A stretch of DNA of 39,693 nt from the NCBI GenBank assembly GCA_041598955.1, contig JBFHXN010000001.1, positions 1 through 39,693 of the forward strand. The letters are read 5' to 3'. Of the stretch, positions 2,749 to 39,028 are shown in pieces (the first letter of the stretch is position 1; every line of letters begins with the position of its first letter). Made by a program: the position numbers and the translations under genes. The notes under the pieces were generated by a model, which was given only the letters and a program-made list of their open reading frames with translations, was not told the origin of the DNA and ran no database searches. Origin of the DNA: Desulfuromonadales bacterium (GTDB lineage Bacteria > Desulfobacterota > Desulfuromonadia > Desulfuromonadales > JBFHXN01).

Positions 2749-2769
2749 CCTTTGAGTTGTCGGGCCCTC

Positions 2770-3396
2770 TCAGAAATAGCGGCCGAGTTGCAGAAAGACC
2801 GAGTTGATTCCCCGGTTCTCGCGATGCAACTCGGCGTTGGAGACGTGATGCCCCCGCAAAGCGGCGAACCAGGTGGATCCGTCGTCGCCCTCGATCTCCA
2901 GGCCTAAGCCTGCCTGGGGATTGAAGTTGATCCTCAGGCCCTGTCCTTCGACCCGGAAGTCGGTGTAGACCAGGCCGATTCCCGCCTCGACGTAAGGACG
3001 GCAGGAGGAGGTGGCCCAGGGCTCGAGAAAATAGAGGGCCAGCATGTTGGCCGAAGCCATCGCCCGGGTCCCGGGGGCCATGGCAAGTCCCGCGCTCCCT
3101 TCCACCTTGAAGCGCAGCGCCTGGGGCGCCCGGTGGGGCCAGACGCGGTCGTAGTCGAAAAGGGCCACGGCCGAGACCAGGGCAAAGTCGATGTCGTTGG
3201 TCGGATCGTATGTCAGGCCATAGCCGACACCGGCCCCAAACCGGGTTGGAAGGAGTTGACCCTCTTCGGCCCCGCCGGGGGAGACCGCGAGCAGAGGCAG
3301 GATCAGGGCGAGAAGGCCGGCCCGCCACCCCACGGGGGGCTGAGTTCTAAAACTCGCCACGGCGTACGGTAAAGGAGCCAAAGCTCCCTTCTCCAT
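2770..3396 (-). CDS. PagL-like acyloxyacyl hydrolase / lipid A 3-O-deacylase family outer-membrane beta-barrel
   Basis: Signal-peptide-like WRAGLLALILPLLAVSPGGA. Alternating beta-strand pattern ending in the aromatic GRYF. C-terminal HHVSNAELHRENRGINS matches the H-x-S-N catalytic motif of PagL. The start is uncertain: ATG 3396 overlaps the upstream gene by 50 nt, and GTG at 3360 or 3333 is possible. Confidence 0.7.
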   Translation of the reverse strand: MEKGALAPLPYAVASFRTQPPVGWRAGLLALILPLLAVSPGGAEEGQLLPTRFGAGVGYGLTYDPTNDIDFALVSAVALFDYDRVWPHRAPQALRFKVEGSAGLAMAPGTRAMASANMLALYFLEPWATSSCRPYVEAGIGLVYTDFRVEGQGLRINFNPQAGLGLEIEGDDGSTWFAALRGHHVSNAELHRENRGINSVFLQLGRYF

Positions 3397-4444: not shown

Positions 4445-5643
4445 GATTTGTCTCCCGACCCGAAAACAATCACAGCGTTGTTGCCGCCGAAGGCCAGCGA
4501 TTCAGAGAGTGCGACCCGGCCTCGAACGGGGATCGTTTTTACCGTGGGCCGCCCGGGCAGATCGGGATCGGGGGTCGAAAACCCGACACTGGCCGGGATC
4601 TCCTTGCGCTCCAGACAGGCGACGGTGAGAGCCGCCTCGATCGCCCCGGCCGCGCCGAGGGTGTGGCCGGTATATCCCTTGGTGGAGAAAAAGGGGGTCT
4701 GCGGCAGCACCTCGCTGAGAACCCGGCTCTCCACCCGGTCATTGTCCGGGGTGCCGGTGCCGTGGGCGTTGACGAAGTCGATCTCCCCCGGTTGGGCGCC
4801 GCTGGAGGCGAGAGCCTCGGCGATGGCCCGCTTCAGCCCTGACCCGTCGGGACTCGGAGCGGTCAGGTGGTAAGCATCGCAGGCCGAGCCGTAACCGAGG
4901 ACGTAGGATCGGGCTCGCACTCCCCTCCTGCGATGCACCTCCTCGGATTCAAGGACCAGCATCGCAGCCCCCTCGCCGAGGTTGAGCCCCCGGCGGCTGA
5001 GATCGAAGGGACGGACCGCTTCGGCGTCGGTAATCATCAAAGAGATGAAGCCGTTGTAGGTCACCCGGCAGAGCTCATCGGCCCCCCCGGCGATGGCCAG
5101 GTCGCAGAGGCCTGCGCGGATCCACGAGGCGGCCAACCCGACGGCATCGGTCCCCGAGGAGCAGGCGTTGACCACCGTCTGGCAGGGGCCCCCTAAGCCG
5201 TAGCGGCGGGCGATCGCCCCCGCCGGGTTGCTCTGCAGAAAGCGCTCGATGGGAGTCATCGCTGGGGCTTCTCCCCGGCGGTATTGGCTGTAGAACTCCT
5301 CGTTGTTCATGGCGCTGCCCACCGTTGTCCCGACGCAGACGCCGACGCGCAGTCCGGCCAGATCAGCCGGGGCCCAGCCCGCGTCGGCGAAGGCCTCCTG
5401 CGCCGCGGCCAAAGCCAGGCTGGAGGTTCGCAGCAGACCGCTCCCCTCCCCGGGGACCTCGGCCAGCGCCTCATCCGGCACCTCGAAAACGGGATAGCGA
5501 CCCGGATGGCCGGTGGAAACGCGGCCGGGCGGCAGGGGGTTGCGCTTGCCGGCAAAGAGCGCCCCGGTGCATTCGGCCAGGTTGTTGCCGGCGGCGCACA
5601 GGCAGCCGAGGCCGGTGACGGCAACGGGAGCCTGGGAGATCAT
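4441..5643 (-). CDS. beta-ketoacyl-ACP synthase (FabF/KAS II-like)
   Basis: Active-site VVNACSSGTDAV, His motifs NAHGTGTPDND and GHTLGAAG. ATGA overlap with the ACP stop at 5640-5643. Confidence 0.9.
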   Translation of the reverse strand: MISQAPVAVTGLGCLCAAGNNLAECTGALFAGKRNPLPPGRVSTGHPGRYPVFEVPDEALAEVPGEGSGLLRTSSLALAAAQEAFADAGWAPADLAGLRVGVCVGTTVGSAMNNEEFYSQYRRGEAPAMTPIERFLQSNPAGAIARRYGLGGPCQTVVNACSSGTDAVGLAASWIRAGLCDLAIAGGADELCRVTYNGFISLMITDAEAVRPFDLSRRGLNLGEGAAMLVLESEEVHRRRGVRARSYVLGYGSACDAYHLTAPSPDGSGLKRAIAEALASSGAQPGEIDFVNAHGTGTPDNDRVESRVLSEVLPQTPFFSTKGYTGHTLGAAGAIEAALTVACLERKEIPASVGFSTPDPDLPGRPTVKTIPVRGRVALSESLAFGGNNAVIVFGSGDKS

Positions 5644-5894
5644 GCCGAAGTCCGCTGCTCGATGAAGGCCGCCAGGGTATCAACGGACTGCAGCGCGGGA
5701 CGACCCTGCTCCATGTCCTTGATCTCGACCCCGAAGTGCTTCTGCACCAGGACCACCAGTTCGACGGCATCGAGAGAATCGAGGCCCAGCCCTTCGCCGA
5801 ACAGAGGAGCGTCATCGACGATATCCTCCGGGCTCATATCCTCCAGGTTGAGCTCTTCCACCAGCACCTTCTTGAGTTTTTCCTTGATCGTCAT
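5640..5894 (-). CDS. acyl carrier protein
   Basis: MTIKEKLKKVLVEEL...GLDSLDAVELV carries the phosphopantetheine Ser motif. The ATG at 5894 lies just after the upstream stop at 5899. The longer track ORF (to 6044) is an unlikely extension that overlaps the acyltransferase. Confidence 0.9.
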   Translation of the reverse strand: MTIKEKLKKVLVEELNLEDMSPEDIVDDAPLFGEGLGLDSLDAVELVVLVQKHFGVEIKDMEQGRPALQSVDTLAAFIEQRTSA

Positions 5895-5898
5895 CGCT

Positions 5899-6867
5899 TC
5901 AGGCTCCTTTGGTGATCGCGGCAGGACTCTCCCCCTCAGTCGTCGGGGGAGTCTGCCACATGTCGTAGAAATTGAAAAACTGAAAAGGATGTTCCCGGGT
6001 GAATTCCTCCAGCACGTCAGCGAACTGCTGGGCATAGGGGGCAAAGGCCTCGGCGCGGCGACCGAGATCGGGCGCCACCCGGATCACCCGGAAGAGCTTG
6101 AGCTCATAATGTCTGGGCCCGCTCTTGCAGGAGAAGAGGACTGCCACCGGAGCGCCGGTGGCCGAAGCGAGCTTGAAGGCGCTGAAAGGGAAAAGAGCCT
6201 TGGCGCCGAGAAAGTCGACCGCCACCCCGTTCTGGTCGTTGCCGAGCATGCGGTCGCCCATGACCGAAAGGACCTCTCCGTTTTTGAGAACCCCGAGCAT
6301 CTCCATGGTGCCGCCGAGAAAACCTCTGGGGTCGATGATCCGGTAGGGGCAGGCCAGACCGGCATGCTCGAAGTAGTGGCGGTCGATGTCCCCCTCTTCG
6401 CGCTGCATCAGAAGGCTGACGGGAACCTGCAGGAACCCGAGGGCGGACATGGCCACCTGCCAGCATCCGACATGGGCCGTCATCAGCACCAGGCCCTTGC
6501 CTTCGCCCAGAAGGGCGAGGAGTTCCTCCCGGCCGCCGAGTCCCATCCCCATCTGCTCGGGCCCCAGAATCCCGACCACCGCCCGGTCGACAAGCACCTT
6601 TCCGATCTCGAGGCTCAGCCGGTAGCTCTTCACCAGGCGCCTGAGTGTTCCGTCCCCGGGGTAGCGCCGGCGAAGATAATATTCGCTCTTGCGCCGCTGG
6701 TCGGGACGCAGCAGAACGTAGTACAGAACGACGAAATAGAGCAGCAGATAGGCCGCGCGCCTTCCTCCGAGCCGAATCAGCAGGTAGAAGATCCGGTGCT
6801 GCCAGTCGGCGCCGATGCTGCGGCTGCTCCACCCGGCCCTGCCCTCCTGTCCCTCAGCCGGCGACAT
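5899..6867 (-). CDS. LpxL/HtrB-like lysophospholipid/lipid A acyltransferase family protein
   Basis: N-terminal TM segment, then LVLMTAHVGCWQ (the H-x4-type motif region of late lipid A acyltransferases). Length about 320 aa. C-terminal PFQFFNFYDMW is typical of the family. Confidence 0.8.
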   Translation of the reverse strand: MSPAEGQEGRAGWSSRSIGADWQHRIFYLLIRLGGRRAAYLLLYFVVLYYVLLRPDQRRKSEYYLRRRYPGDGTLRRLVKSYRLSLEIGKVLVDRAVVGILGPEQMGMGLGGREELLALLGEGKGLVLMTAHVGCWQVAMSALGFLQVPVSLLMQREEGDIDRHYFEHAGLACPYRIIDPRGFLGGTMEMLGVLKNGEVLSVMGDRMLGNDQNGVAVDFLGAKALFPFSAFKLASATGAPVAVLFSCKSGPRHYELKLFRVIRVAPDLGRRAEAFAPYAQQFADVLEEFTREHPFQFFNFYDMWQTPPTTEGESPAAITKGA

Positions 6868-27865: not shown

Positions 27866-28462
27866 CTAATCCTTGACTTTGACAACCTTCCCGTCCTCCC
27901 CGAACTCGACGGCGATAGTGCCGAACCGATTGGTCCAGTAAACCCAGACCGGGGCGTTCAAGGAAGGAGTTTTATGGGCCGCGGGATAACCAAGGGCTGT
28001 CATGACACCGTCCCTGGTCATGCCGACCAAAGCCTTCCCTTCCTTGATCCCTTTCTGGTCTACGCTGGAAAACTTTTTGGCCGGGACGGCATCGGGTGAA
28101 GTGATTAAGGAAATATACTCATTCACCTTCATCCCCATGCGGGGCTCACTGTATTCGAAATCAACCAGGAAATCTTGATTTTTGCTGACAAAGGAAAAAC
28201 TTCGTCCTGATATTTTAGTGATCGTTATCGGAGATCCGGCCGGAACGATCAAATGAACTGGACCTGGATTCGTATAATTTGCATAGCTTGCTTGATAAAC
28301 CTTATTGCCTCTTCTGTCCAATTGTTGCTGGACGTGAATGTTGTACTTGGTATACGCAGCCTTCTCGATTGCAACAGCAGGAACACAACCAACCAGGCAA
28401 AAACTGAAGAATAAAACAATTGCCCATATACCCCTGGATCTTTGCTTAGACGCGGACATCAT
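27866..28462 (-). CDS. lipoprotein of unknown function, possible BamE/SmpA-OmlA-like C-terminal domain
   Basis: MMSASKQRSRGIWAIVLFFSFCLVGC has a lipobox L-V-G-C. C-terminal GMTRDGVMTALGYPA resembles the BamE-fold motif. G+C and codon usage are markedly lower than in the neighbours. RBS GGGGGAGG lies upstream. Confidence 0.7.
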   Translation of the reverse strand: MMSASKQRSRGIWAIVLFFSFCLVGCVPAVAIEKAAYTKYNIHVQQQLDRRGNKVYQASYANYTNPGPVHLIVPAGSPITITKISGRSFSFVSKNQDFLVDFEYSEPRMGMKVNEYISLITSPDAVPAKKFSSVDQKGIKEGKALVGMTRDGVMTALGYPAAHKTPSLNAPVWVYWTNRFGTIAVEFGEDGKVVKVKD

Positions 28463-28533
28463 TACCTCCCCCTAATGATTTATTTTCTCTGCGGAACAGA
28501 TCCCTCACTCTTTCCGAGAAAACTCCACGCGGC

Positions 28534-28562
28534 TTCTTAGCAAAAATGGTACCTTTGGTCAA
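28534..28562 (-). promoter_or_regulatory. candidate sigma70-type promoter for the lipoprotein-led operon
   Basis: The minus strand reads TTGACC-17 nt-TAAGAA about 70 nt upstream of the ATG at 28462. This is a pattern match only. Confidence 0.25.
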
Positions 28563-28856
28563 CCTAGATTTACCGACCCACTCTTCCCTGCGTCCAGAAT
28601 ACATTACCTTGCGGTTGCAGATCTACCCACCTTCACCCCTGTCATTTCCATGACACGGTTTTCCAGTGGCAATCCATGGCATGTTCCACCGTTGGGATCG
28701 CCCCGGATTCCCTGCTCACATCTACGACAGACAGCGATATCCGGGGTGAAAATTGAGACGCAAGAGGATGAGGATGGATGGGGAGAGAGGAACTCGGGAA
28801 GGATGTCAAGACCTTGGGGCGGTTGCTGGCAAGTGCGGCGCTTTCGGGGGTGGGGC

Positions 28857-28882
28857 GCTGGGGCGCAGCACCGCCCCCCAGC
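28857..28882 (-). terminator. GC-rich hairpin about 18 nt after the CoA-transferase B stop (possible operon-end terminator, no U-tract)
   Basis: The minus strand reads GCTGGGG-GGCGGTGCTGCG-CCCCAGC, a 7-bp outer stem plus inner pairs. It is followed by a C-rich rather than U-rich tail. Confidence 0.3.
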
Positions 28883-28900
28883 ACCCCGATTGCGCCGGCG

Positions 28901-29725
28901 TCAGTCGGCCTTTTTCACCTTGGGGATGAAAATCTGCTCCGGGTCGAGAACCTCGTGGATCAGGTGGAGCTCTTGCCGGGTCGGCGGCAAGGTCTCCCCG
29001 CCGACCCGGGAGATGTCGAGATCGAACTGGCAGAGCCCCTTGATCTCCTCGGGGGTTTTTCCGGGGTGGCAGGTGTCGAGGTACATCCGGCCGCTTGGCT
29101 CATCGAAGCGGAAGACCCCGGCGGTGCTGATCACCGCCGAGGGCCCCCCGCGGAAGGCGGCGCCGTAGAGTTCGCGACGCGGTACCATCTCCCCCCCCGG
29201 CCACTGTTTGACCCGCCACCCGGGGCTGGTGATGTAGCTGACGTTTTCGACAAAGCGCCGTGGCTCGTGGACCATGATGAAGACGGTACGCCGGGCGAAG
29301 GAGTTGATGTCGGGATTGCCGCCGCTGCCGGTCAGGCGCAGCTCAGGGTTCAGGTAGTCGCCGATGCAGGTGGTGTTGACATTGCCGTACTGGTCGACCT
29401 CGGCGCCGCCCAGAAATCCGAGATCGACATAGCCGCGCTGGGCGATGCTGAAGGCGTCGTAGAGCCCCGAGGCGCGGGAGGCCCCCATCTCGCAGCGGGC
29501 GTCCCCGACGGAGGTCGGAATCTGCGGCGGACGCCCATCGAGGGTGCCGGCCTCGAAGATCAGCTTGAGGTTCGGTGCATGGGTCTTCTGCGCCAGCATG
29601 ATCGCCACCATCGGCAGACCGGTGCCGGCAAAGACAATCTCGTGGTCCTGCACCTCGCGGGCGGCGGCGCAGCAAAGGAGGTCGGCGAGACCGAATTCTT
29701 CCGGGGATGCGTAGTCCTGGCTCAT
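28901..29725 (-). CDS. CoA-transferase subunit B (glutaconate/3-oxoacid CoA-transferase family I, beta)
   Basis: GGAEVDQYGNVN and LTGSGGNPD blocks. Candidate catalytic Glu region LIFEAGT. It is paired with an adjacent subunit A gene. Confidence 0.85.
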   Translation of the reverse strand: MSQDYASPEEFGLADLLCCAAAREVQDHEIVFAGTGLPMVAIMLAQKTHAPNLKLIFEAGTLDGRPPQIPTSVGDARCEMGASRASGLYDAFSIAQRGYVDLGFLGGAEVDQYGNVNTTCIGDYLNPELRLTGSGGNPDINSFARRTVFIMVHEPRRFVENVSYITSPGWRVKQWPGGEMVPRRELYGAAFRGGPSAVISTAGVFRFDEPSGRMYLDTCHPGKTPEEIKGLCQFDLDISRVGGETLPPTRQELHLIHEVLDPEQIFIPKVKKAD

Positions 29726-29726
29726 G

Positions 29727-30698
29727 TCAAAGCCCCCTTTTCACCGAGGTGGAATAGTTGAGTGCGGTATTCGCCCTGAGGCCCAGCATGCGGCCCCAGC
29801 CGAGTTTTTCCAGGTAGGCGAGGTGGTCGAGACCATGGATCCACTCCTGGGCGAAGGCGTCGTAGCCCTCCTGGGTGCGGGTCCTGCCGTAGAAGTCCTT
29901 GAGGAAGGCGCCATCGACGTCGTAGCGGCCGAACATCCCGGTGGGATGAGCACCGAAGGGGCATTCGAGGATATGGTCGACCTCGAAGCTGGGGATGGTG
30001 TTTTGGTCGGCCTGGCGGCGCAGGTATTCCTCGGGGACGATCTCCTCGGCCATGACGATGGTCAGATCGGCGGCGCGCGCCGCCTCGGGGTCGGAGTAAT
30101 ACTGGCCGCTGACCCGCACCGTCCCCTCCTCGCCGACCTGCTGCACGCACATCACGGCGATGTCGACCTTGGCCGCCGGCACCAGCACCTGGGCGCCGGC
30201 ACCGTAGAAGGGATCCTCGGTGAAGACATACTTCTGCCTGGCGATGCGCTGGCCGTCCCGCCTGCCGGCCTGGCCGAGCATGTCGTAGGCGGGGTTGTGG
30301 ATGTCCGTGCCCAGCGACGTCTGGGTCACCGCGTAGGGGGCTCCGCTGGCGGCAGCGGCGAAGCGGAACAGCATCTCGGCGTGGCTGTAGTCCTCGACGA
30401 TCATCTCCTTGGCCCCGACCTTGCGCGAGAGGTTGGCGCCGTACTTGCCGTAGAGCTCGTGGCCGACCCAGCACGACTCCCAGATATCGACGCAACCGGC
30501 GCCGACCAGGAATTCGGTCTGCGGGCCGCCGTTGACCTCGATCAGGTGCAGACCGCGGCGCTGCTGGCGGATCAGCTCGAAGATGATCGCCATCGGCCGG
30601 CGCCAGATGGTGAAGCCCGAGAAGGTCAGGCTCGATCCGTCCTTGATGATCTCGGCGGCCTGCTGAAGGGTGATGCGTTTGTCAGTGCTCATACTCAA
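29727..30698 (-). CDS. CoA-transferase subunit A (family I, alpha)
   Basis: ITLQQAAEIIKDGSSLTFSGF is a typical N-terminus. Length about 320 aa (GctA-like). It sits 1 nt upstream of subunit B. The track start appears to be TTG, and an ATG lies two codons in. Confidence 0.85.
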   Translation of the reverse strand: MSMSTDKRITLQQAAEIIKDGSSLTFSGFTIWRRPMAIIFELIRQQRRGLHLIEVNGGPQTEFLVGAGCVDIWESCWVGHELYGKYGANLSRKVGAKEMIVEDYSHAEMLFRFAAAASGAPYAVTQTSLGTDIHNPAYDMLGQAGRRDGQRIARQKYVFTEDPFYGAGAQVLVPAAKVDIAVMCVQQVGEEGTVRVSGQYYSDPEAARAADLTIVMAEEIVPEEYLRRQADQNTIPSFEVDHILECPFGAHPTGMFGRYDVDGAFLKDFYGRTRTQEGYDAFAQEWIHGLDHLAYLEKLGWGRMLGLRANTALNYSTSVKRGL

Positions 30699-30770: not shown

Positions 30771-31928
30771 TCAGCCGAAATTCTTCAGAATCTCCCGCGC
30801 GATAATCACCCGCTGGATTTCGTTGGTCCCTTCGTAGATGGAGGTGATGCGGGCATCACGGGCGTAGCGCTCGACGGGAAAATCCTGGGTGTAGCCGTAA
30901 CCGCCGAGCATCTGCAGCGCCTTGTAGCAGGCCTGGTTGGCCGCCTCGGTGGCGAACATCTTGGCCATCGACGCCTCCTTGGCGAAGGGCTTCCCCCGCT
31001 CCTTTCGGAAGGCGGCATTCATCAGCAGCAGCCGCGCCGCCTCGAGAGCGGTATAGGCATCGGCGACCATCCACTGGATCGCCTGGAAGTTGCTGATCTT
31101 CTGCCCGAACTGAGCCCGTTCGCAGGAGTAGCGGCTGGCGTAGTCCATGGCTGCCAGGCCGACGCCGAGGCCGAGGGACCCGATGCCGATCCGGCCGCCT
31201 GCCAATTCGCCGACCGCCGTTCGGAAGCCGTCGTTCTGCTTTCCCATCAGGGCGCTCTTGGGGACGCGGCAGTCGGCGAAGATGACTTCGTTGGTCGCCG
31301 AGGCGTGCTGCCCCATCTTCTTCTCCTCCTTGCCGATGATCAGCCCCGGGGTGCCGGCTTCGACGAGAAAGCAGCTGATCCCCTTCCCCTTCGGCGCGCT
31401 CCTGTCGGTCACCGCCCAGACGACGAAGACCCCGGCGTAAGGGGCGCTGGTGATAAAGAGTTTGCTGCCGTTGAGGATATAGCTGTCGCCGTCGTCGACG
31501 GCCTGGGTCGTCATCCCCGAGGGGTCGGACCCGGCACCGGTCTCGGTCAGGGCAAAAGCCCCCGCGGCGAATTCGCCGGAGCAGATCTTCGGGATGTAGG
31601 CGAGGCGCTGTTCCTCGCTCCCGATGGCCTGGATCACCTCGCAGACCATGTTGTTGACCGAGACCGTCACCGCCGTCGAGGCGCAGGCTTTGGATATCTC
31701 GGTCATGGCGACGGAAAAGGCGACCACCCCGGCTTCGGAGCCGCCGTAGAGGTCCTTGACGTTGAGCCCCATGAAGCCGAGCTCCGCCAGCTTTTTCAGG
31801 TTGGCCAGCAGGGCGCCGCGGTCGTTCCCCTGGTCGAGTTGGGCCGCCACCGGCTCGAGCTCGGCCCTGGCGAAGTCCCGGGCTGTCTCCTGGATCAGTT
31901 TCTGCTCTTCGGTCAGTTCGAGAAACAT
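30771..31928 (-). CDS. acyl-CoA dehydrogenase
   Basis: Full-length ACAD. C-terminal YEGTNEIQRVIIAREI, and a catalytic-base region typical of short/medium-chain ACADs. Confidence 0.95.
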   Translation of the reverse strand: MFLELTEEQKLIQETARDFARAELEPVAAQLDQGNDRGALLANLKKLAELGFMGLNVKDLYGGSEAGVVAFSVAMTEISKACASTAVTVSVNNMVCEVIQAIGSEEQRLAYIPKICSGEFAAGAFALTETGAGSDPSGMTTQAVDDGDSYILNGSKLFITSAPYAGVFVVWAVTDRSAPKGKGISCFLVEAGTPGLIIGKEEKKMGQHASATNEVIFADCRVPKSALMGKQNDGFRTAVGELAGGRIGIGSLGLGVGLAAMDYASRYSCERAQFGQKISNFQAIQWMVADAYTALEAARLLLMNAAFRKERGKPFAKEASMAKMFATEAANQACYKALQMLGGYGYTQDFPVERYARDARITSIYEGTNEIQRVIIAREILKNFG

Positions 31929-31976: not shown

Positions 31977-32804
31977 CTACGGTTCCCGAAGGGCGACGAT
32001 CGGCACATCCTGCTGCTGCCCCCAGGCCTGCCAATCCTCCGCGGGACGGGTCGCAAAGACGCGGCGATAGTCGTCTGCGGTCCGGATCCCGAGCGCCGTT
32101 TCCAACCGTTTCTTGAAATGGGGTTCGAGGGCCGCCACGGCCACCCAGCCCTTCTGCGCCTCGTAAAGATTGTATTCGGGCACCCCGCCGCCGAGGTTGG
32201 CCCCGGGGAGGGTCGTCTCGTAGCGCAGCGGTTCGGCCATGGCCGATGCAGCCTCGGACAGGGCGACTTCGGCATAGCCGGGGCCTTCGCCCCGCTCCCG
32301 CGCCAGCAGCAGGGCCAGGGCGGCGGAGACTGCCATCTCGGCGCCGGCCATGTCGGCCAGCAGCGTGCGCGGCATGTGGGGCGGGGTCAGCAGCCCGAGA
32401 GTGGCCTGGTAGGTCAGATCGTGGCCGGCCTCGTTCTGCCGCGGCGCTGGGTAGCCGACGATGGCGACCTGGCTGAGCCGTGGGCAGTCCCGCTGCAGCC
32501 TTGTCCAGTCGAGTCCGAGCCTCGCCAGGGCCGCCGGGCGCGAGGCGGTGATCAGCAGGTCGGCCTTGACCAGGAGGCGGCCGAGGCGTTCCCGGTCATG
32601 ACTTGTCTTCAGATCGAGGCGCATGACCGTCTGGTCGGCCGCCAGATCCCGGTACCAGCCGGCATGGTAGCTCGCCATGGGATCTCCCGCCGGGGGTTCG
32701 ACCTTGACCACCGTCGCTCCCAGCGTCCGCAGGCGTCGAGCCGCTTCCGGGCCCGGGAGGTTGAGAGCCAGGTTGACCACGCGCATGCCCTCAAGGGTTG
32801 CCAT
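31977..32804 (-). CDS. family III CoA-transferase (CaiB/BaiF-like), unusually short (about 275 aa)
   Basis: MATLEGMRVVNLALNLPGPEAARRLRTLGATVVKVEPPAGDP is the family III N-terminal fold. GHDLTYQA contains the expected catalytic Asp context. The track ORF extension to 33449 overlaps the Fe-S protein gene in another frame and was rejected. Confidence 0.7.
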   Translation of the reverse strand: MATLEGMRVVNLALNLPGPEAARRLRTLGATVVKVEPPAGDPMASYHAGWYRDLAADQTVMRLDLKTSHDRERLGRLLVKADLLITASRPAALARLGLDWTRLQRDCPRLSQVAIVGYPAPRQNEAGHDLTYQATLGLLTPPHMPRTLLADMAGAEMAVSAALALLLARERGEGPGYAEVALSEAASAMAEPLRYETTLPGANLGGGVPEYNLYEAQKGWVAVAALEPHFKKRLETALGIRTADDYRRVFATRPAEDWQAWGQQQDVPIVALREP

Positions 32805-33531
32805 GTCGCTTCCTCCCTTTCCTCCCCCAGGGGCAGACCTTGATGCAGATGCCGCAAATCGGCTTTTCGATCTGCGGCAGGTTCTTGAATTCGTTGACCA
32901 GCAGCTCGGCGCATTTGCTGAAATCAAGCGCCTCCTCCCGGGAGGCGTAGTGGAATTCGACATTGACGTTTCGAATCGCCTGGGCCACGCAGGCTTCCGT
33001 GCAGGCCCGGCAGTTTCCACAGCGGTTTTTAAGGGGGCTATCGGCATCCAGCGGCAGGTCGGTGAGAACCGTCGCCAGCCGCACCCGGGGGCCGAACTCG
33101 GGGGTGACGATGAGGAGGCTTTTCCCCTGCCAGCCGAGACCGGCGGCATTGGCGACCGCCTTGGCCGAGAGGTGGGAGGTGAAATGGACCATGTCGAGGG
33201 GGAGGGAGGCCGGTATCGGCAGGGCGTTGCCCCCCTGATCCTCGATCCAGTCGCTGAGCTTGAAGGCAATGGTGTCGAGCAGGGCGTTGGCCTGCTGGTA
33301 GACCTGCGAATAGAGCGGAGTCGGGCGGTCCTCGAGCTGCTCGAAGACGGCGCTGGGGAGCTTGACGGCAAAGGAAACGGCGCGGGTGTAAGGGGCGAGC
33401 AGATCGGCCGGGGTCGTCTCGATCCCCGCCAGCAGCTCCAGATCGGCAACCCCGACCAGATTGGCGCCCAGGGCCCGTGCCCGCCGCTTGAGACGTTCTG
33501 TCAGTGACCTCTGCGCTCCCGACATCCCCAC
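32791..33531 (-). CDS. QueG/reductive-dehalogenase-superfamily-like protein with two 4Fe-4S motifs (short form)
   Basis: AGLGWQGKSLLIVTPEFGPRVRLATVLTDLPLDAD followed by CGNCRACTEAC and CGICIKVCPWG matches the epoxyqueuosine reductase core and ferredoxin motifs. At 246 aa it lacks the QueG C-terminal extension. Confidence 0.8.
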   Translation of the reverse strand: MGMSGAQRSLTERLKRRARALGANLVGVADLELLAGIETTPADLLAPYTRAVSFAVKLPSAVFEQLEDRPTPLYSQVYQQANALLDTIAFKLSDWIEDQGGNALPIPASLPLDMVHFTSHLSAKAVANAAGLGWQGKSLLIVTPEFGPRVRLATVLTDLPLDADSPLKNRCGNCRACTEACVAQAIRNVNVEFHYASREEALDFSKCAELLVNEFKNLPQIEKPICGICIKVCPWGRKGRKRHGNP

Positions 33532-33548
33532 CTCCCGCTGCCCGCCGC

Positions 33549-34079
33549 CTACTTCTCGATGCCGACTCGGGCCTGCACCCCTTGGGCATAGTAGTGCTTG
33601 ACCTCGCGCATCTCCGTCACCAGGTCGGCGGCGGCCATGACCCTCTCGTCGGCGCCGCGCCCCGTCAGGACCAGCTCCACCGTCGCCGGCTTGGCCTCCA
33701 TGAGCCCCAGGATGGACTCGACCTCGATCAGACCGAACCAGGCGGCGCCGTTGATCTCATCGAGGATCACCAGATCGTACTCCCCGCCGAGGAGGGTCTG
33801 CCGTGCCAGCTCCAGGGTCTCGCCGGCGATGCGGACATCCTCGGGATCGAGTCGGTCGCGGTGAATCCAGCCGTCGCGCCCGGTCTGGTGGATGATGAGC
33901 CGGGGAAGGTAGCGGGCCGCGGCGAGATGCTCGCCGTAGGCGCCCCCCCCCTTGATGAACTGGATCATGCAGACCTTCAGCCCCCGGCCCACGGCCCGCA
34001 GCGCCAGCCCCAGGGCGGCGGTGGTCTTCCCCTTGCCGTTTCCGGTGTAGACCTGGATCAGGCCGCGCTCCAGGCTCAT
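33549..34079 (-). CDS. cobO: ATP:cob(I)alamin/cob(I)yrinic acid a,c-diamide adenosyltransferase (CobA/CobO/BtuR type)
   Basis: IQVYTGNGKGKTTAALGLALRAVGRGLKVCMIQFIKG is the P-loop signature of the family. 176 aa. The ATG overlaps the etfA stop as ATGA. Confidence 0.9.
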   Translation of the reverse strand: MSLERGLIQVYTGNGKGKTTAALGLALRAVGRGLKVCMIQFIKGGGAYGEHLAAARYLPRLIIHQTGRDGWIHRDRLDPEDVRIAGETLELARQTLLGGEYDLVILDEINGAAWFGLIEVESILGLMEAKPATVELVLTGRGADERVMAAADLVTEMREVKHYYAQGVQARVGIEK

Positions 34080-34990
34080 TTCGCCAGCCTTGCGGTGAGG
34101 GCCGGCACGAACTGCAGCACGTCGGCGACGACCAGCACGTCGGCGACCTCACCGATCGGGGCGTCCTTGTCCTTGTTGATGGCGACGACGAATTCCGATT
34201 TCTTCATCCCCGCCAGATGCTGGATGGCTCCGCTGATGCCGCAGGCCACGTAGAGCTTGGGGGCGACGCTCTGGCCCGTCGTGCCGACCTGGTGACCGTG
34301 ATCCACCCAGCCGGCGTCGACCACCGGCCGGCTCGCCCCGAGTTCGCCGCCGAGGGCCTTGGCCAGAGCCTCGATGAGGGGCACGTTCTCCTTTTTGCCG
34401 ATGCCCCGCCCGGCGCTGACGATGACCTCGGCCCGGGTCAGATCGACCCCCTTGGCCTCGGCCGGCTCGTAGCCGACGAATTCGATTGCAGACGCCCCAC
34501 CCTCGACCTCCAGGGGCTCGATCTGCGGCGTCCCTCCCGGCGGCTGGGCCGTGAAGGCTCCGGCCTGGATCGTCAGGACGGTGCGCTGCGTCGCCGGCTT
34601 CACCGCGCGCCGCATCTTGGCGTTGCAGCAGCCGACCTCGTAGCCCCCCTCTGCCAGTCCGAGCACCTCGGAGACCTGTCCCGCCTGCAGCGCCGCCGCC
34701 ACCCTGGGGGCCAGATCCCAGCCGTAGGAGGAGTGGACGAAGACGATGATGTCGGGCTGCGCCTTGGCAACCGCCTCCAGAATGAGCCGCTTGTGCTGGT
34801 CGGGGTTGTATTCGCCGTACCTCGAGACGTCGGCCAGGTAGAGGGTTCCCCCGAAAGCCGGCAGCTGCGTGCTGCTGCCGACCAGAAAAAGGGACGCCTC
34901 GGCGCCGGAGCGGGCCGCAAAGCCGAAGAGTTCATAGGTGCTCTCGAGGAGTTTGCCCTCCCGATATTCGCCGATCAGCAATGCTTTCAT
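34076..34990 (-). CDS. etfA: electron transfer flavoprotein alpha subunit
   Basis: PKLYVACGISGAIQHLAGM FAD-binding signature. 304 aa. Located downstream of etfB. Confidence 0.95.
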   Translation of the reverse strand: MKALLIGEYREGKLLESTYELFGFAARSGAEASLFLVGSSTQLPAFGGTLYLADVSRYGEYNPDQHKRLILEAVAKAQPDIIVFVHSSYGWDLAPRVAAALQAGQVSEVLGLAEGGYEVGCCNAKMRRAVKPATQRTVLTIQAGAFTAQPPGGTPQIEPLEVEGGASAIEFVGYEPAEAKGVDLTRAEVIVSAGRGIGKKENVPLIEALAKALGGELGASRPVVDAGWVDHGHQVGTTGQSVAPKLYVACGISGAIQHLAGMKKSEFVVAINKDKDAPIGEVADVLVVADVLQFVPALTARLAK

Positions 34991-34999
34991 CGTCGCCTC

Positions 35000-35776
35000 C
35001 TAGCGCAGAACCGCGGTTTTTTCCTTGAGAATGCCGACCAGTTGCTCCACCTGGGCTCCGACCTCCCCCTCCAGGACCAGGCCACCCCCCTTTTTGACCG
35101 GCGGGTAGAAGCGCAGGGTCGCGGCGCGGGGTCCTTCGCCGGAGAGGCTGGCGACCGGCAGGGCCTCGATCTCCTTCTTCTTGGCTTTCATGATGTTGGG
35201 GAGGGTCGGATAGCGCGGCACGTTGAGCCCGAGCTGGCAGGTGACAAGGGCCGGGGTGCGCAGTTTTGCCACCCCCTTGATCCCCCCTTCGAGTTCGCGC
35301 TTGGCCGTGATCACGCCGTCGGCATAGGAGAAGCCGACCAGGGTGGTGACGCAGGCGATGCCGAGGCGCTCGGCCAGGGTCACCCCGACCTGTGCGCTTC
35401 CGCGGTCCTGCGACTGCATGCCGGTGAAGATCAGGTCGAACCCCTTCCCCTCGGCGTAGGCGGCGATAAGGGCGGCGATCTGCCAGGGGTCCTTCTGAGC
35501 CGCCGCAGGATCCTGCAGATGCACGGCGCGGTCGCACCCCATCGCCAGGGCCTTCTTCAGCGCCTCGACCACCCGATCCGGACCTATGGAGAGGACCGTC
35601 ACCTCGGAGCCTTCGCCGAGCTGCTCCCTGAGGCGCACCGATTGCTCGACGGCGTACTCGTCGTATTCGTTCATGCGCCAGGCGAGGTCGGCTTCGTCGA
35701 ACCAGACCCCGGAGGCGTTCGGTTTGAAGCGGGACTCGAGATCGGGAACCTGTTTGATGCAGACGAGAATTTTCAT
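35000..35776 (-). CDS. etfB: electron transfer flavoprotein beta subunit
   Basis: MKILVCIKQVPD N-terminus. 258 aa. Confidence 0.95.
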   Translation of the reverse strand: MKILVCIKQVPDLESRFKPNASGVWFDEADLAWRMNEYDEYAVEQSVRLREQLGEGSEVTVLSIGPDRVVEALKKALAMGCDRAVHLQDPAAAQKDPWQIAALIAAYAEGKGFDLIFTGMQSQDRGSAQVGVTLAERLGIACVTTLVGFSYADGVITAKRELEGGIKGVAKLRTPALVTCQLGLNVPRYPTLPNIMKAKKKEIEALPVASLSGEGPRAATLRFYPPVKKGGGLVLEGEVGAQVEQLVGILKEKTAVLR

Positions 35777-35801: not shown

Positions 35802-35822
35802 CTGGGACTTATGGGACCTATG
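35802..35822. repeat. second copy of the GGGAC(C/T)-type 9-bp repeat (2-3 units), overlapping the stop codon of the Fe-S oxidoreductase gene
   Basis: The plus strand reads TGGGACTT ATGGGACCT ATG. ATGGGACCTAT is identical to 30709-30719, and GGGACTTAT is the reverse complement of ATAAGTCCC at 30718-30726. Confidence 0.5.
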
Positions 35823-37809
35823 CCCTGAGCCTGTCCGCCACCACCTCCGCCAGATCCCTGACCTGCAGGGTCCCCTCGCAGCCGCCGGTCTTGATTCCGT
35901 CTTCGAACATGGTCAGGCAGAAGGGGCAGTTGGAGACCAGCAGCGGCGCTCCGCTCGCCCGGGCCATCTCGACCCTCGCCACGCTGATGCGGCTGCCGAG
36001 CTTCTCTTCGGCGAGGATGCGCCCGCCGCCGGCGCCGCAGCAGAAGCTCTCGGCGCCGCTGCGCGCCATCTCGGAGATGCGGCCGCCGGCCGCCTCAAGC
36101 ACGCTGCGGGGCTCCCGGTAGAGGTCGAGGTAGCGGCCGAGGTAGCAGGAGTCGTGATAGGTGACGTCAAAGGGCTCGCCGCTCAGGGCCAGGCGATCGT
36201 CGGCGAGGAGCCCGGCGAGAAAGCTGGCGTAGTGTTGGACCGGCACGTCGAGGCCGAGGTCGCGGTAGTCGCGCCCGAGAGTGTTGCAGCAGTGGGGGCA
36301 GCTGGTGACGATCTGCTTGACGCCGTAGCCCTTGATCAGCTCGATGTTCTCCATCGCCAACATCTGGTAGAGGTACTCGTTGCCGAGCTTGCGCGCAGGC
36401 TCGCCGCAGCACTTCTCCTGCTTGCCGAGGATGCCGACCCGAAGGCCGGCGGCGGCGCAGATCCTGACGAAGTTGCGAGCCACCTCCTGGTTGCGCCGGT
36501 CGAAGGAGGCGTAGCAGCCGACGAAGTAGAGCAGATCGACCTCCGCGCCGCTCTCCATCACCGTGACCGGCAGCCCCTCGGCCCACTCGCCTCGCCCGGC
36601 GAAGGCGAGGCCGAAGGGATTGCCGTTGACCTCGAGGTTGCCGACGGCGGTGCGCACCTCGTCTCCGGGGAAGGCCCCCTCCATCAACGTCAGGTTGCGG
36701 CGCAGCTCGACGATCTTGTTGACGTGCTCGACCTGGGCCGGGCAGATCTCCTGGCATGCGCGGCAGGTGGTGCAGGCCCAGATGGCGTCCCGCCCGACCA
36801 CTTCGGCAAGCTCCTCCTGTGGCGCCTCGACGGCGCAGGCGCCGATTTGCTGCACCAGGCGCATGGGGGAAAGGGGCTTGTCGGTCGCGGAGGCCGGGCA
36901 GCGATCCTGGCAGCGCTGGCAGCTGGTGCAGGCGTCGCCGTCGAAGAGATCCTTCCAGGTCAGGTCCTTGACCCGGGCGGCGCCGAACTGCTCGGCGCTC
37001 TCGTCCTCCAGGTCGAGGGTGGCGATCCCCCCCTTGGGCCCGAGGTCGGCAAAGAGGTAATTGGCGCTGGTGGTGAGGATGTGGCGCAGCTTGGTGAAGG
37101 GGAGCGCGGCAATCAGGGCCAGGGCGAGGAGCAGATGGAGCCACCACAGCCCCTTGTGCAGAGCCGCCAACTGAGCCCCGGGCAGGTCGAGCAGCAGAAG
37201 TCCGACGGCCTTGCCCACCGGGGACCAGGCGGCCAGCGCCGGGTTTTGCGTCAGTTCCGTCGCCGCCATGCGCGCCCCTTCGATGGCGAAACCGGTCAGC
37301 AGGATGGCCAGGAGCAGGGCGTGCAGCAGATAGTCGTCGCGGACGCTTTCCAGTCCCTGCGGCCGCAGCACGAAGCGCCGCACCAGAAGGCCACCGAGCA
37401 TCACCAGGGCAACCAGCCCGGCGAGATCGAGGGCCAGGGAATAGATGCGGTAGAAATTCCCCTTCAGAAAAACCACGCCGAAGAGGGGCTGGGTGAGATC
37501 GGCCTGGAGCATGATCAGAAGGGTACCGACAAAGAGCAGGGCAAAGCCCCAGAAGAAGCAGGCGTGGAAGGTCCCGGCGATGGCGCGCCGGCGCACGCGG
37601 GCCTGCGTCAGCAGATTGCGCGCCAGCAGCCCCAGTCTCCTCGCGAGCTGATCGAGACGCTGCAGGGGGCGCCCCTGCCTGTAGACCGGCAGGCGCCGCC
37701 AGATCCCCCAGGCCAGCAGCGCCAGGGTCAGGGCGGTCAGCAGGCACATCGGCAGGATCACGCCGGTTCCGACGTTCCAGTAGATTTCGCGCGTAGCATC
37801 CATGGCCAA
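35818..37809 (-). CDS. membrane-anchored Fe-S oxidoreductase (N-terminal multi-TM domain + 2x[4Fe-4S] + two CCG domains; HdrD/GlpC-like, ETF-associated)
   Basis: About 6 hydrophobic helices in the first 260 aa. CTSCQRCQDRCP and CTTCRACQEICP ferredoxin motifs. CCG-type Cys motifs (CCGEPARK, SCPHCCNTL, FCCGAGGG, NCPFCLTMF). Confidence 0.9.
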   Translation of the reverse strand: MAMDATREIYWNVGTGVILPMCLLTALTLALLAWGIWRRLPVYRQGRPLQRLDQLARRLGLLARNLLTQARVRRRAIAGTFHACFFWGFALLFVGTLLIMLQADLTQPLFGVVFLKGNFYRIYSLALDLAGLVALVMLGGLLVRRFVLRPQGLESVRDDYLLHALLLAILLTGFAIEGARMAATELTQNPALAAWSPVGKAVGLLLLDLPGAQLAALHKGLWWLHLLLALALIAALPFTKLRHILTTSANYLFADLGPKGGIATLDLEDESAEQFGAARVKDLTWKDLFDGDACTSCQRCQDRCPASATDKPLSPMRLVQQIGACAVEAPQEELAEVVGRDAIWACTTCRACQEICPAQVEHVNKIVELRRNLTLMEGAFPGDEVRTAVGNLEVNGNPFGLAFAGRGEWAEGLPVTVMESGAEVDLLYFVGCYASFDRRNQEVARNFVRICAAAGLRVGILGKQEKCCGEPARKLGNEYLYQMLAMENIELIKGYGVKQIVTSCPHCCNTLGRDYRDLGLDVPVQHYASFLAGLLADDRLALSGEPFDVTYHDSCYLGRYLDLYREPRSVLEAAGGRISEMARSGAESFCCGAGGGRILAEEKLGSRISVARVEMARASGAPLLVSNCPFCLTMFEDGIKTGGCEGTLQVRDLAEVVADRLRA

Positions 37810-37888: not shown

Positions 37889-39028
37889 TCAGGAAAGAAG
37901 GAGCTTCGAGATCACCACCCGCTGCACTTCGTTGGTCCCTTCGTAGATCTCGGTGATCTTGGCGTCACGGTACATGCGCTCGACCTCGTAGTCGCAGATG
38001 TAGCCGTAGCCACCGTGGATCTGGATCGCCTCCTTGGTGACGTAGGTGGCCGCCTCGGAGGCGAGCATCTTGCACATCGCCGACTCCATGGTGTAGTTCC
38101 TGTTCGCATCCTTGAGGCAGGCGGCCTTGTAGGTCATCAGCTTGCTGGTTTCGATGCGGGCGTACATGTCGGCAAGCTTGAACTGGATCGCCTGGAGGTC
38201 GCAGATCGGAGCGCCGAACTGCTTGCGTTCCTTGGAGTAGGCCAGCGCCAGCTCGAAGGCCCCCTCGGCGATGCCGAGGGCCTGGGAGGCGATGCCGATG
38301 CGGCCTCCGTTGAGGGTATCCATGGCGATCTTGAACCCCTGCCCTTCGGCGCCCAGAATGTTCTCCGCCGGGATGCGAACGTCATCGAGGGCGAAGGCCG
38401 TGGTGTAGCTGCCGCGGATGCCGAGCTTCTTCTCGTTCTTGAGGATCTCCACCCCCGGCGACTGCAGATCGATGATGAAGGCCGTGACCCCCTTGTGCTT
38501 GAGGCTCTTGTCGGAGGTGGCGAAGAGCACCCCGGTGCCGCGATAGCCGCCGTTGGTGATGAATATCTTGCTCCCATTGACCACGAAGTGGTCGCCGTCG
38601 CGCTTGTAGGTGGTGGCAATGGCCCCGGCATCGCTGCCGGCGTCCGGTTCCGTCAGCAGAAAGCAGCCGATGGAGGCCCCGGTGTTCAGGGCCGGCAGCC
38701 ATTTCTTCTTCTGCTCCTCGGTGCCGAAGGTGTAGATCGGGCCGCAGGCCAGGGAGGTGTGGGCCGAGATCAGCACGCCGCTCGAGCCGCAGGCCTTGGA
38801 CACCTCCTCGACGACAATGGCGTAGGAGAGCATGTCGAGACCGGCTCCGCCATACTCCTCGGGGAGGTAGCTGCCGAGGAATCCCATCTCCCCCATCTTG
38901 CGCACCAGGTCGTCGGGGATGGAGTGCTCCTCGTCGATCTGCACGGCGAGGGGCTTGACTTCCTTCTCGACGAAATCGCGCACGGCGTCGCGCAACACCT
39001 TGTGATCCTGGGACAGTTCGAAATCCAT
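37889..39028 (-). CDS. acyl-CoA dehydrogenase (butyryl/short-chain type)
   Basis: MDFELSQDHKVLRDAVRDFVEKEV N-terminus with RBS GAGGAGGAAG upstream. C-terminal YEGTNEVQRVVISKLL. The track extension to 39334 overlaps the crotonase gene and was rejected. Confidence 0.95.
   Translation of the reverse strand: MDFELSQDHKVLRDAVRDFVEKEVKPLAVQIDEEHSIPDDLVRKMGEMGFLGSYLPEEYGGAGLDMLSYAIVVEEVSKACGSSGVLISAHTSLACGPIYTFGTEEQKKKWLPALNTGASIGCFLLTEPDAGSDAGAIATTYKRDGDHFVVNGSKIFITNGGYRGTGVLFATSDKSLKHKGVTAFIIDLQSPGVEILKNEKKLGIRGSYTTAFALDDVRIPAENILGAEGQGFKIAMDTLNGGRIGIASQALGIAEGAFELALAYSKERKQFGAPICDLQAIQFKLADMYARIETSKLMTYKAACLKDANRNYTMESAMCKMLASEAATYVTKEAIQIHGGYGYICDYEVERMYRDAKITEIYEGTNEVQRVVISKLLLS

Follow-up and report, generated by a model that had tools for sequence, protein, structure and literature searches.

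Introduction

To our knowledge, proteins with the class-III B12 fold have been assigned no more than two activities, the reduction of organohalides and that of epoxyqueuosine. The epoxyqueuosine reductase QueG binds two [4Fe–4S] clusters, at −510 and −575 mV, by a pattern of eight Cys, has Arg141 under the corrin and uses a HEAT-like domain (Leu257–Leu385 in B. subtilis) to bind tRNA (PMC5175355). One active-site residue, the catalytic Tyr, is common to QueG and RdhA, the second characterised branch of the fold (PMC4646009). Here we analyse a stretch of 39,693 nucleotides of a Desulfuromonadales bacterium (GCA_041598955.1, contig JBFHXN010000001.1, contig C1 of genome G000 in our survey), called the window in the following, which encodes a short QueG/RdhA-like Fe–S protein next to a paralog of the ATP:cob(I)alamin adenosyltransferase gene cobO. 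We refer to the Fe–S gene and its product as QGL. A sequence-only reading of the window had drawn attention to the pair, which is embedded in an operon for electron-transfer flavoprotein (ETF) and acyl-CoA oxidation. Our comparison with related genomes places both genes in an operon for the fused isobutyryl-CoA mutase IcmF. It is well supported that CobO supplies adenosylcobalamin to IcmF, and we tentatively propose that QGL serves both proteins by reducing or processing the corrinoid.

Results

QGL has the class-III fold of QueG and RdhA but is neither

A profile of 18 QGL homologs found PceA, QueG and NpRdhA in the PDB, with E-values from 1e-17 to 1e-9. For the AlphaFold (AF2) model of QGL (pLDDT 76, N-terminal domain above 90) the best Foldseek matches were QueG and PceA (E 2e-10). 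VIA-align yielded Z-scores of 13.4–15.4 to QueG, PceA, NpRdhA and the RDH complex, with 15.4 for QueG (180 residues aligned), 15.4 for NpRdhA and 14.2 for PceA. MMACHC/CblC reached 10.3 (170 of 237 residues aligned), CblD 8.7 and flavin mononucleotide nitroreductases only ~7. Due to these profile, Foldseek and VIA-align matches we assign to QGL a class-III corrinoid/[4Fe–4S] fold, in which the model predicts a nitroreductase-like domain and a two-cluster ferredoxin domain. The protein also matches Fer4_16 (38.7 bits).

Eight Cys (C171, C174, C177, C181, C207, C226, C229 and C233) are invariant in the 18 sequences and 96–99% conserved in 114 family representatives, and their pattern CX2CX2CX3C...C...CX2CX3C is the same as in QueG. 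QGL was aligned to six true QueG sequences by MAFFT and hhalign with concordant results. Both methods align Lys124 of QGL to QueG Arg141 and Asp113 to QueG Asp134, Asp being present at this position in only 60% of the QGL family. Further conserved residues among the 114 representatives are Tyr74 (96%), Tyr78 (90%), Asn82 (90%), Leu85 (94%) and Arg151 (99%).

The same alignments separate QGL from QueG. No counterpart was found by either method for the C-terminal HEAT domain of ~130 residues, QGL ending 13 residues beyond its last Cys, and the 26-residue N-terminal segment of QueG is absent as well. The D-Y-H triad of QueG (Asp104-Tyr105-His106) aligns to Ala83-Leu84-Leu85. QGL scores 74.5 bits in the QueG family TIGR00276 (cut-off 200), with a match confined to residues 118–240, and 62.5 bits in the RdhA family TIGR02486 (cut-off 160.35), over residues 120–238 only. 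In a maximum-likelihood tree the QGL family is set apart from QueG by a long branch with a support of 100/100.

A profile search found no QueG above cut-off in this genome, but QueH is encoded (PF02677, 208 bits) and QGL is therefore not needed for queuosine here. Among 401 genomes of the phylum, 69 contain QGL, 339 QueH and 33 a QueG above cut-off. By our reading of the table, QueH is found in about 57 of 68 QGL-positive genomes versus 339 of 401 overall. Since QueH occurs in QGL carriers at the background rate, QGL fills no gap in queuosine synthesis. The sequence-only reading had placed the protein in the QueG/RdhA superfamily, noted the missing QueG C-terminal extension and doubted an ordinary queG; all three points were borne out.

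The window holds the 3' half of an IcmF operon

In the syntenic relative G024 the operon block of the window recurs with 60–87% identity on a 1.36-Mb contig, which carries the whole operon. Upstream and on the same strand follow genes for the TRAP transporter DctPQM, a DUF6125 protein, a mutase of 1092 aa, a nitroreductase, an M24 hydrolase, a thiolase, a 3-hydroxyacyl-CoA dehydrogenase and a crotonase. Pfam domains for B12 binding, MeaB and methylmalonyl-CoA mutase are combined in the single chain of the 1092-aa protein. Contiguous relatives have this upstream half, from the TRAP transporter and DUF6125 via IcmF to the crotonase, joined to a downstream half that encodes an acyl-CoA dehydrogenase, the membrane Fe–S oxidoreductase, EtfBA, CobO, QGL, in some cases a short CaiB-like protein, a second acyl-CoA dehydrogenase (ACAD2) and CoA-transferase AB. 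This shows that the window holds the 3' half of an operon of ~22 kb.

IcmF requires adenosylcobalamin, which explains the presence of a CobO-type adenosyltransferase in a "beta-oxidation" operon. The sequence-only reading was right that cobO is foreign to classical beta-oxidation; its client mutase lies outside the window. In this genome the upstream half was found on contig C33 in the same order as in the relatives, with a full-length IcmF (1–1076; NF045497, 1910.9 bits versus a cut-off of 1500). We did not find the thiolase-hbd bridge that would join C33 to C1; for the 3-hydroxyacyl-CoA dehydrogenase of the operon the best match in the assembly has 45% identity. The linkage of both contigs thus rests on synteny in relatives. 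The operon would serve to oxidise a carboxylate that is short or branched, with isobutyrate/butyrate as the most plausible substrate. Conversion of isobutyrate by isobutyryl-CoA mutase, followed by beta-oxidation of butyrate, is known in anaerobes (PMC5017805).

QGL is linked to IcmF clusters across genomes

QGL and IcmF were searched for in 233 genomes of the taxonomic order, including this one. A QGL match was obtained in 15 of them, and 14 of these belong to the clade of the window (63–85% identity). IcmF is encoded in all 14 genomes with this clade versus 73 of 233 overall, and in 8 genomes QGL and IcmF lie on one contig, 3.5–14 kb apart. The sequence-only reading had suggested looking for conservation of the arrangement, and the trio etfA-cobO-QGL is indeed shared by 8 genomes, this one among them; in 4 of the 8 the CaiB-like gene is present too. 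The trio is part of arrangement A, etfA-cobO-QGL-(CaiB-like)-ACAD2, in which one further genome lacks cobO, while 3 genomes show arrangement B, ACAD2-QGL-DctPQM-IcmF. Altogether the linkage of QGL to the IcmF cluster was kept through at least two rearrangements and across six families of the order. The linked QGL sequences (n = 13 on the tree, a partial copy from G545 being left out) form one clade with a support of 100/99.

In 12 of 13 relatives ACAD2 is the acyl-CoA dehydrogenase nearest to QGL, either adjacent or with only the CaiB-like gene between. We considered an obligate partnership of ACAD2 and QGL but rejected it, as ACAD2 orthologs (76–79% identity) occur in clusters without QGL.

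The IcmF clusters of two genomes, G017 and G018, contain neither QGL nor cobO. Both keep the mutase, ETF, oxidoreductase, thiolase, hbd, crotonase, both dehydrogenases and the CoA-transferases, and G017 also keeps the short CaiB-like gene. Since these clusters exist without either gene, QGL and cobO are optional add-ons, and a function in cofactor maintenance fits this pattern better than a core catalytic step.

The IcmF-linked clade also differs in sequence. Position 123, which adjoins the predicted under-corrin residue, is occupied by His in 93% of the family representatives (106 of 114), but by Ala or Ser in QGL of the window and in all 12 linked relatives examined. This exchange suggests a functional shift or a specialised role of the clade. 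Most clade members have a His three residues earlier instead (SHLSAK vs SYISHK), and this His may be a ligand or catalytic residue that has moved.

Additional cobO copies accompany mutase genes

The CobO protein of the window passes its family tests (TIGR00708 cut-off 167.75 bits; scores in Table 1), and its P-loop GNGKGKTTAALG (GNGKGKTT) is present. Three cobO copies were found in the genome, on contigs C84 and C219 and in the window. The C84 copy adjoins cobU-cobT-cobS and is the housekeeping copy. On C219 (locus L120) cobO (2006–2551) is located 215 nt upstream of a gene for a mutase B12-binding small subunit (2766–3170; TIGR00640, 169 bits), to which a crotonase and an acyl-CoA dehydrogenase gene follow; a thioesterase/crotonase lies on the other side of cobO. 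A separate mutase large subunit is encoded on contig C293. Since the copies of the window and of C219 are both mutase-associated, the extra cobO copies travel with mutase genes, and each acyl-CoA mutase seems to be paired with its own adenosyltransferase.

The wider QGL family

QGL has at least 1,591 homologs of ~240–250 aa. Short QueG-like proteins make up at least 131 clusters at 50% identity (E 1e-30 or better), and look-alike clusters are found in Bacillota, Chloroflexota and other phyla. These proteins are routinely mislabelled as "epoxyqueuosine reductase" in databases, and a search of the literature collection available to us gave no paper on them. A search for related loci gave at least 10 close QGL loci among the matches listed, most of the matches being true QueG genes. 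The neighbourhoods of distant QGL genes contain no conserved partner and nothing related to B12 beyond scattered acyl-CoA dehydrogenase, enoyl-CoA hydratase (ECH) and nitroreductase genes. The fusion search found no longer QGL forms at E 1e-25 or better. Among the longer representatives of the family we saw tandem copies and proteins with a DUF3795, GNAT or Zn-ribbon domain, and none of these domains is involved in B12 trafficking. A putative selenocysteine in the homolog of G061 was rejected, as the apparent in-frame TGA is an ordinary stop codon.

Two further observations concern relatives of QGL. Contig C117 of this genome contains an open reading frame (ORF) of 307 aa (L122:4969–5892, + strand) with 24.7 bits in TIGR00276, no Pfam match and 36% identity to QGL over 77 residues, which may represent a very divergent member of the QueG/RdhA fold. 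In three loci of one family of the phylum (L094–L096; G090, G127, G161) QGL is flanked by a QGL-like paralog of 352 aa (24–26% identity) and a DUF169 protein.

Layout of the locus

The features of the operon are listed in Table 1. The operon runs on upstream beyond the window, past the contig end at the crotonase gene, whose counterpart in G024 has an ECH_1 match of 235 bits. The ORF of acyl-CoA dehydrogenase 1 is open back to 39334, and the alignment to its G024 ortholog (84% identity) begins at 39028.

Table 1. Coordinates and profile matches of operon features in the window, and of genes beside IcmF
Feature	Coordinates	Strand	Assignment and evidence
CoA-transferase family I subunit B	28901–29725	minus	CoA_trans 76.6 and 87.6 bits (A/B pair)
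CoA-transferase family I subunit A	29727–30698	minus	84–87% identity to G024 for A/B; A/B form the operon end (28901–30698)
Acyl-CoA dehydrogenase 2 (ACAD2)	30771–31928	minus	Pfam
Short family III CoA-transferase-like (CaiB-like), 275 aa	31977–32804	minus	PF02515 151.3 bits, profile positions 1–270 of 366
QGL, 246 aa from GTG 33531	32791–33531	minus	predicted minimal class-III corrinoid/2x[4Fe–4S] protein, QueG/RdhA fold
cobO paralog, ATP:cob(I)alamin (corrinoid) adenosyltransferase, 176 aa	33549–34079	minus	PF02572 206.6 bits; TIGR00708 171.8 bits
etfA	34076–34990	minus	ETF_alpha 127.1 bits, ETF 60.6 bits
etfB	35000–35776	minus	ETF 156.2 bits
Membrane Fe–S oxidoreductase (NarI-like, ferredoxin, 2 CCG domains), ETF:quinone oxidoreductase type	35818–37809	minus	CCG 106.3, Nitrate_red_gam 38.2, Fer4_10 37.7 bits
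Acyl-CoA dehydrogenase 1, butyryl-CoA dehydrogenase-like	37889–39028	minus	Acyl-CoA_dh N, M and C-terminal domains
Enoyl-CoA hydratase (crotonase), cut by contig end	39072–39692	minus	78% identity to G024 ECH, residues 55–260
Recurring IcmF neighbours, L129 (G000:C33)	412–2111, 5435–6001		
Recurring IcmF neighbours, L123	5014–5559, 8908–10620		

All features that the sequence-only reading had described for the two genes were found again. The cobO P-loop and the ATGA overlap of the cobO start with the etfA stop (tcat at 34076–34079 of the plus strand) are present on the minus strand, and the QGL ORF contains the epoxyqueuosine-reductase core motif GLGWQGKSLLIVTPEFGPRVRL and both Cys motifs, CGNCRACTEAC and CGICIKVCPWG. 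The described gap of 17 nt between the cobO stop and a QGL protein of 246 aa applies if translation starts at the GTG. Since the mRNA reads GGAGG-TGGGG-ATG in this region, the ATG at 33525 is the likelier start, which gives a gap of 23 nt and a protein of 244 aa; the database protein P0004, 98% identical, is also 244 aa long. The overlap of 14 nt between the QGL stop and the CaiB-like gene was also seen. The short CaiB-like protein is not a one-off truncation: its gene is kept in three QGL-bearing relatives (60–74% identity) and in the QGL-less cluster of G017 (70%).

Downstream of the operon, positions 1–27800 of the window hold an aryl-polyene/ladderane-type lipid cluster with three B12 radical-SAM genes. 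This cluster is not adjacent to the ETF/IcmF operon in G024 and is a unit separate from it, and the idea that the cobO/QGL pair serves this neighbouring radical-SAM operon found no support. Methylcobalamin is the cofactor of B12 radical-SAM methylases, whereas CobO makes adenosylcobalamin. A candidate cobalamin riboswitch at 28611–28720 was rejected, since no Rfam match was obtained at the gathering threshold for the window or with E up to 10 for 28400–29000.

On the IcmF side, the neighbours that recur in several relatives are a BluB-like nitroreductase, a hydrolase of the M24/creatinase type and a DUF6125 protein, though a given cluster need not contain all of them (Table 1). The nitroreductase scores 79 bits in the BluB family (cut-off 150) and is another candidate cobalamin-handling protein.

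Discussion

The embedded cobO paralog would encode a dedicated adenosyltransferase, which makes or re-makes adenosylcobalamin for IcmF. For QGL we propose, with a probability of about 0.42, a function as corrinoid reducing or processing partner of CobO and IcmF. QGL would bind the corrinoid in base-off form and take up low-potential electrons via its two clusters, would reduce or strip cobalamin that was inactivated on IcmF or carries a wrong upper ligand, and would thereby yield a form that CobO can adenosylate. By analogy, QGL would do with iron-sulfur clusters what CblC does in humans, where the chain consists of CblC, adenosyltransferase and MeaB/mutase. The predicted corrinoid fold with low-potential clusters, the exclusive linkage of the clade to a B12-mutase operon, the apparent co-insertion with cobO and the dispensability for the core pathway argue for this function. 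Somewhat less probable is the narrower claim that QGL represents an uncharacterised kind of bacterial B12-processing protein, an iron-sulfur-driven CblC analogue that reduces or de-ligates cobalamin for CobO. The repair of mutase cofactors has been treated elsewhere (PMC10481361; PMC10356863).

Several points weigh against a service of QGL for CobO and IcmF. Corrinoid binding by QGL is itself a prediction from fold and motifs, and the link between QGL and CobO is likewise putative. The cobO gene adjoins QGL in only 8 of 14 loci and is missing within 10 kb in arrangement B. The wider family (at most 62% identity) has no B12 context and is located in unrelated housekeeping neighbourhoods (argC, flavodoxin, cysS, NAD synthase, mnmG), and among QGL fusions none joins the protein to an adenosyltransferase or to MeaB. 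The assembly of this genome has the window on one contig and the IcmF half on another. A simple electron donor needs no corrinoid pocket, and passing cob(I)alamin from one protein to another is chemically awkward.

Alternatively, QGL could be a true B12-dependent reductase whose substrate is a metabolite of the pathway, for instance a substituted acyl-CoA or carboxylate, and whose electrons come from ferredoxin or ETF; we regard this as less likely. QueG and RdhA, both characterised branches of the fold, are substrate reductases (PMC4646009). In agreement with such a function, QGL stands beside ACAD2, directly or via the CaiB-like gene, in both gene orders, overlaps a CoA-transferase-like gene and has Tyr74, Tyr78 and Asn82, which could form an active site. 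However, the position of the catalytic Tyr of QueG and RdhA is Leu in two independent alignments, the gene set suggests no candidate substrate, and ETF potentials are far too high for the formation of Co(I). The sequence-only reading had favoured an ETF-fed, B12-dependent reductive step on an acyl-CoA; this is possible, but weakened, because the cluster of G017 keeps the pathway enzymes compared without QGL.

Less likely still is a general housekeeping function of QGL, or that of a plain Fe–S carrier without corrinoid, the operon position being an accident of the clade. The wider family would suit this explanation, as its members stand alone in varied housekeeping contexts, occur in 69 of the 401 phylum genomes with look-alikes in several other phyla, and are found in uninformative fusions (tandem copies, GNAT, DUF3795, Zn ribbon). 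On the other hand, an accident is difficult to reconcile with a linkage to the IcmF cluster that survived at least two rearrangements in six families of the order, and the clade-specific loss of the otherwise common His123 points to a specialised role.

It is very improbable that QGL carries out the last step of tRNA queuosine synthesis as an epoxyqueuosine reductase of ordinary or short form, for although many family members bear this name in databases, the AGLGWQGK motif is identical to that of QueG and some distant members adjoin tRNA-related genes (e.g. mnmG, cysS), the score far below the TIGR00276 cut-off, the lack of the HEAT domain and of the His106 and Tyr105 equivalents, the QueH of this genome and the co-occurrence of QGL and QueH at background rate all stand against it.

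The locus provides the first specific handle on one clade of short QueG-like proteins, given by an operon with an adenosylcobalamin-dependent mutase and a dedicated adenosyltransferase. Should QGL prove to be the low-potential enzyme for cobalamin reduction or processing that has been missing, it would show by which route cob(I)alamin is regenerated in anaerobes for the repair of mutases, and many database annotations as "epoxyqueuosine reductase" would be corrected. One operon of an anaerobe would then encode processing enzyme, adenosyltransferase, G-protein chaperone and mutase, for which humans use four disease genes. Should QGL rather prove a class-III reductase of a third kind, the operon would limit the substrates to be considered.

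Among the known systems, QueG (TIGR00276; PDB 5D08, 5D6S) is the best structural match. Like QGL, as far as its model and motifs indicate, it has a nitroreductase-like base-off corrinoid domain followed by a 2x[4Fe–4S] ferredoxin domain, with the same AGLGWQGK loop and eight-Cys pattern and a basic residue at the Arg141 position (Lys124 in QGL). It differs in the insert of the ferredoxin domain, and the HEAT domain, the N-terminal segment and D-Y-H are features of QueG only. RdhA (TIGR02486; PceA 4UQU, NpRdhA 4RAS) shares the core fold and the redox chain (Z 14–15.4), and a basic residue of QGL aligns in sequence to PceA Arg305. In contrast to RdhA, QGL is about half the size and by alignment does not conserve the position of the catalytic Tyr; no gene for an RdhB-type anchor is present near QGL, its neighbours being cobO and the CoA-transferase-like gene.

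The proposed role itself, provision of reduced cobalamin to an ATP:corrinoid adenosyltransferase, is that of PduS, CobR and the flavodoxin FldA. The folds and cofactors of these proteins (flavin, or flavin plus Fe–S) are unrelated to QGL. The human decyanase/dealkylase chaperone CblC/MMACHC has a nitroreductase-like corrinoid-binding fold and a size similar to QGL. Sequence similarity between the two is not detectable (QGL has no CblC match in Pfam or NCBIfam), CblC has no Fe–S domain and uses flavin or glutathione, and a processing activity of QGL is our proposal by analogy. The genomic setting of QGL, with a putative processing enzyme, an adenosyltransferase and a MeaB-type G-protein together with the mutase, mirrors the human CblC chain.

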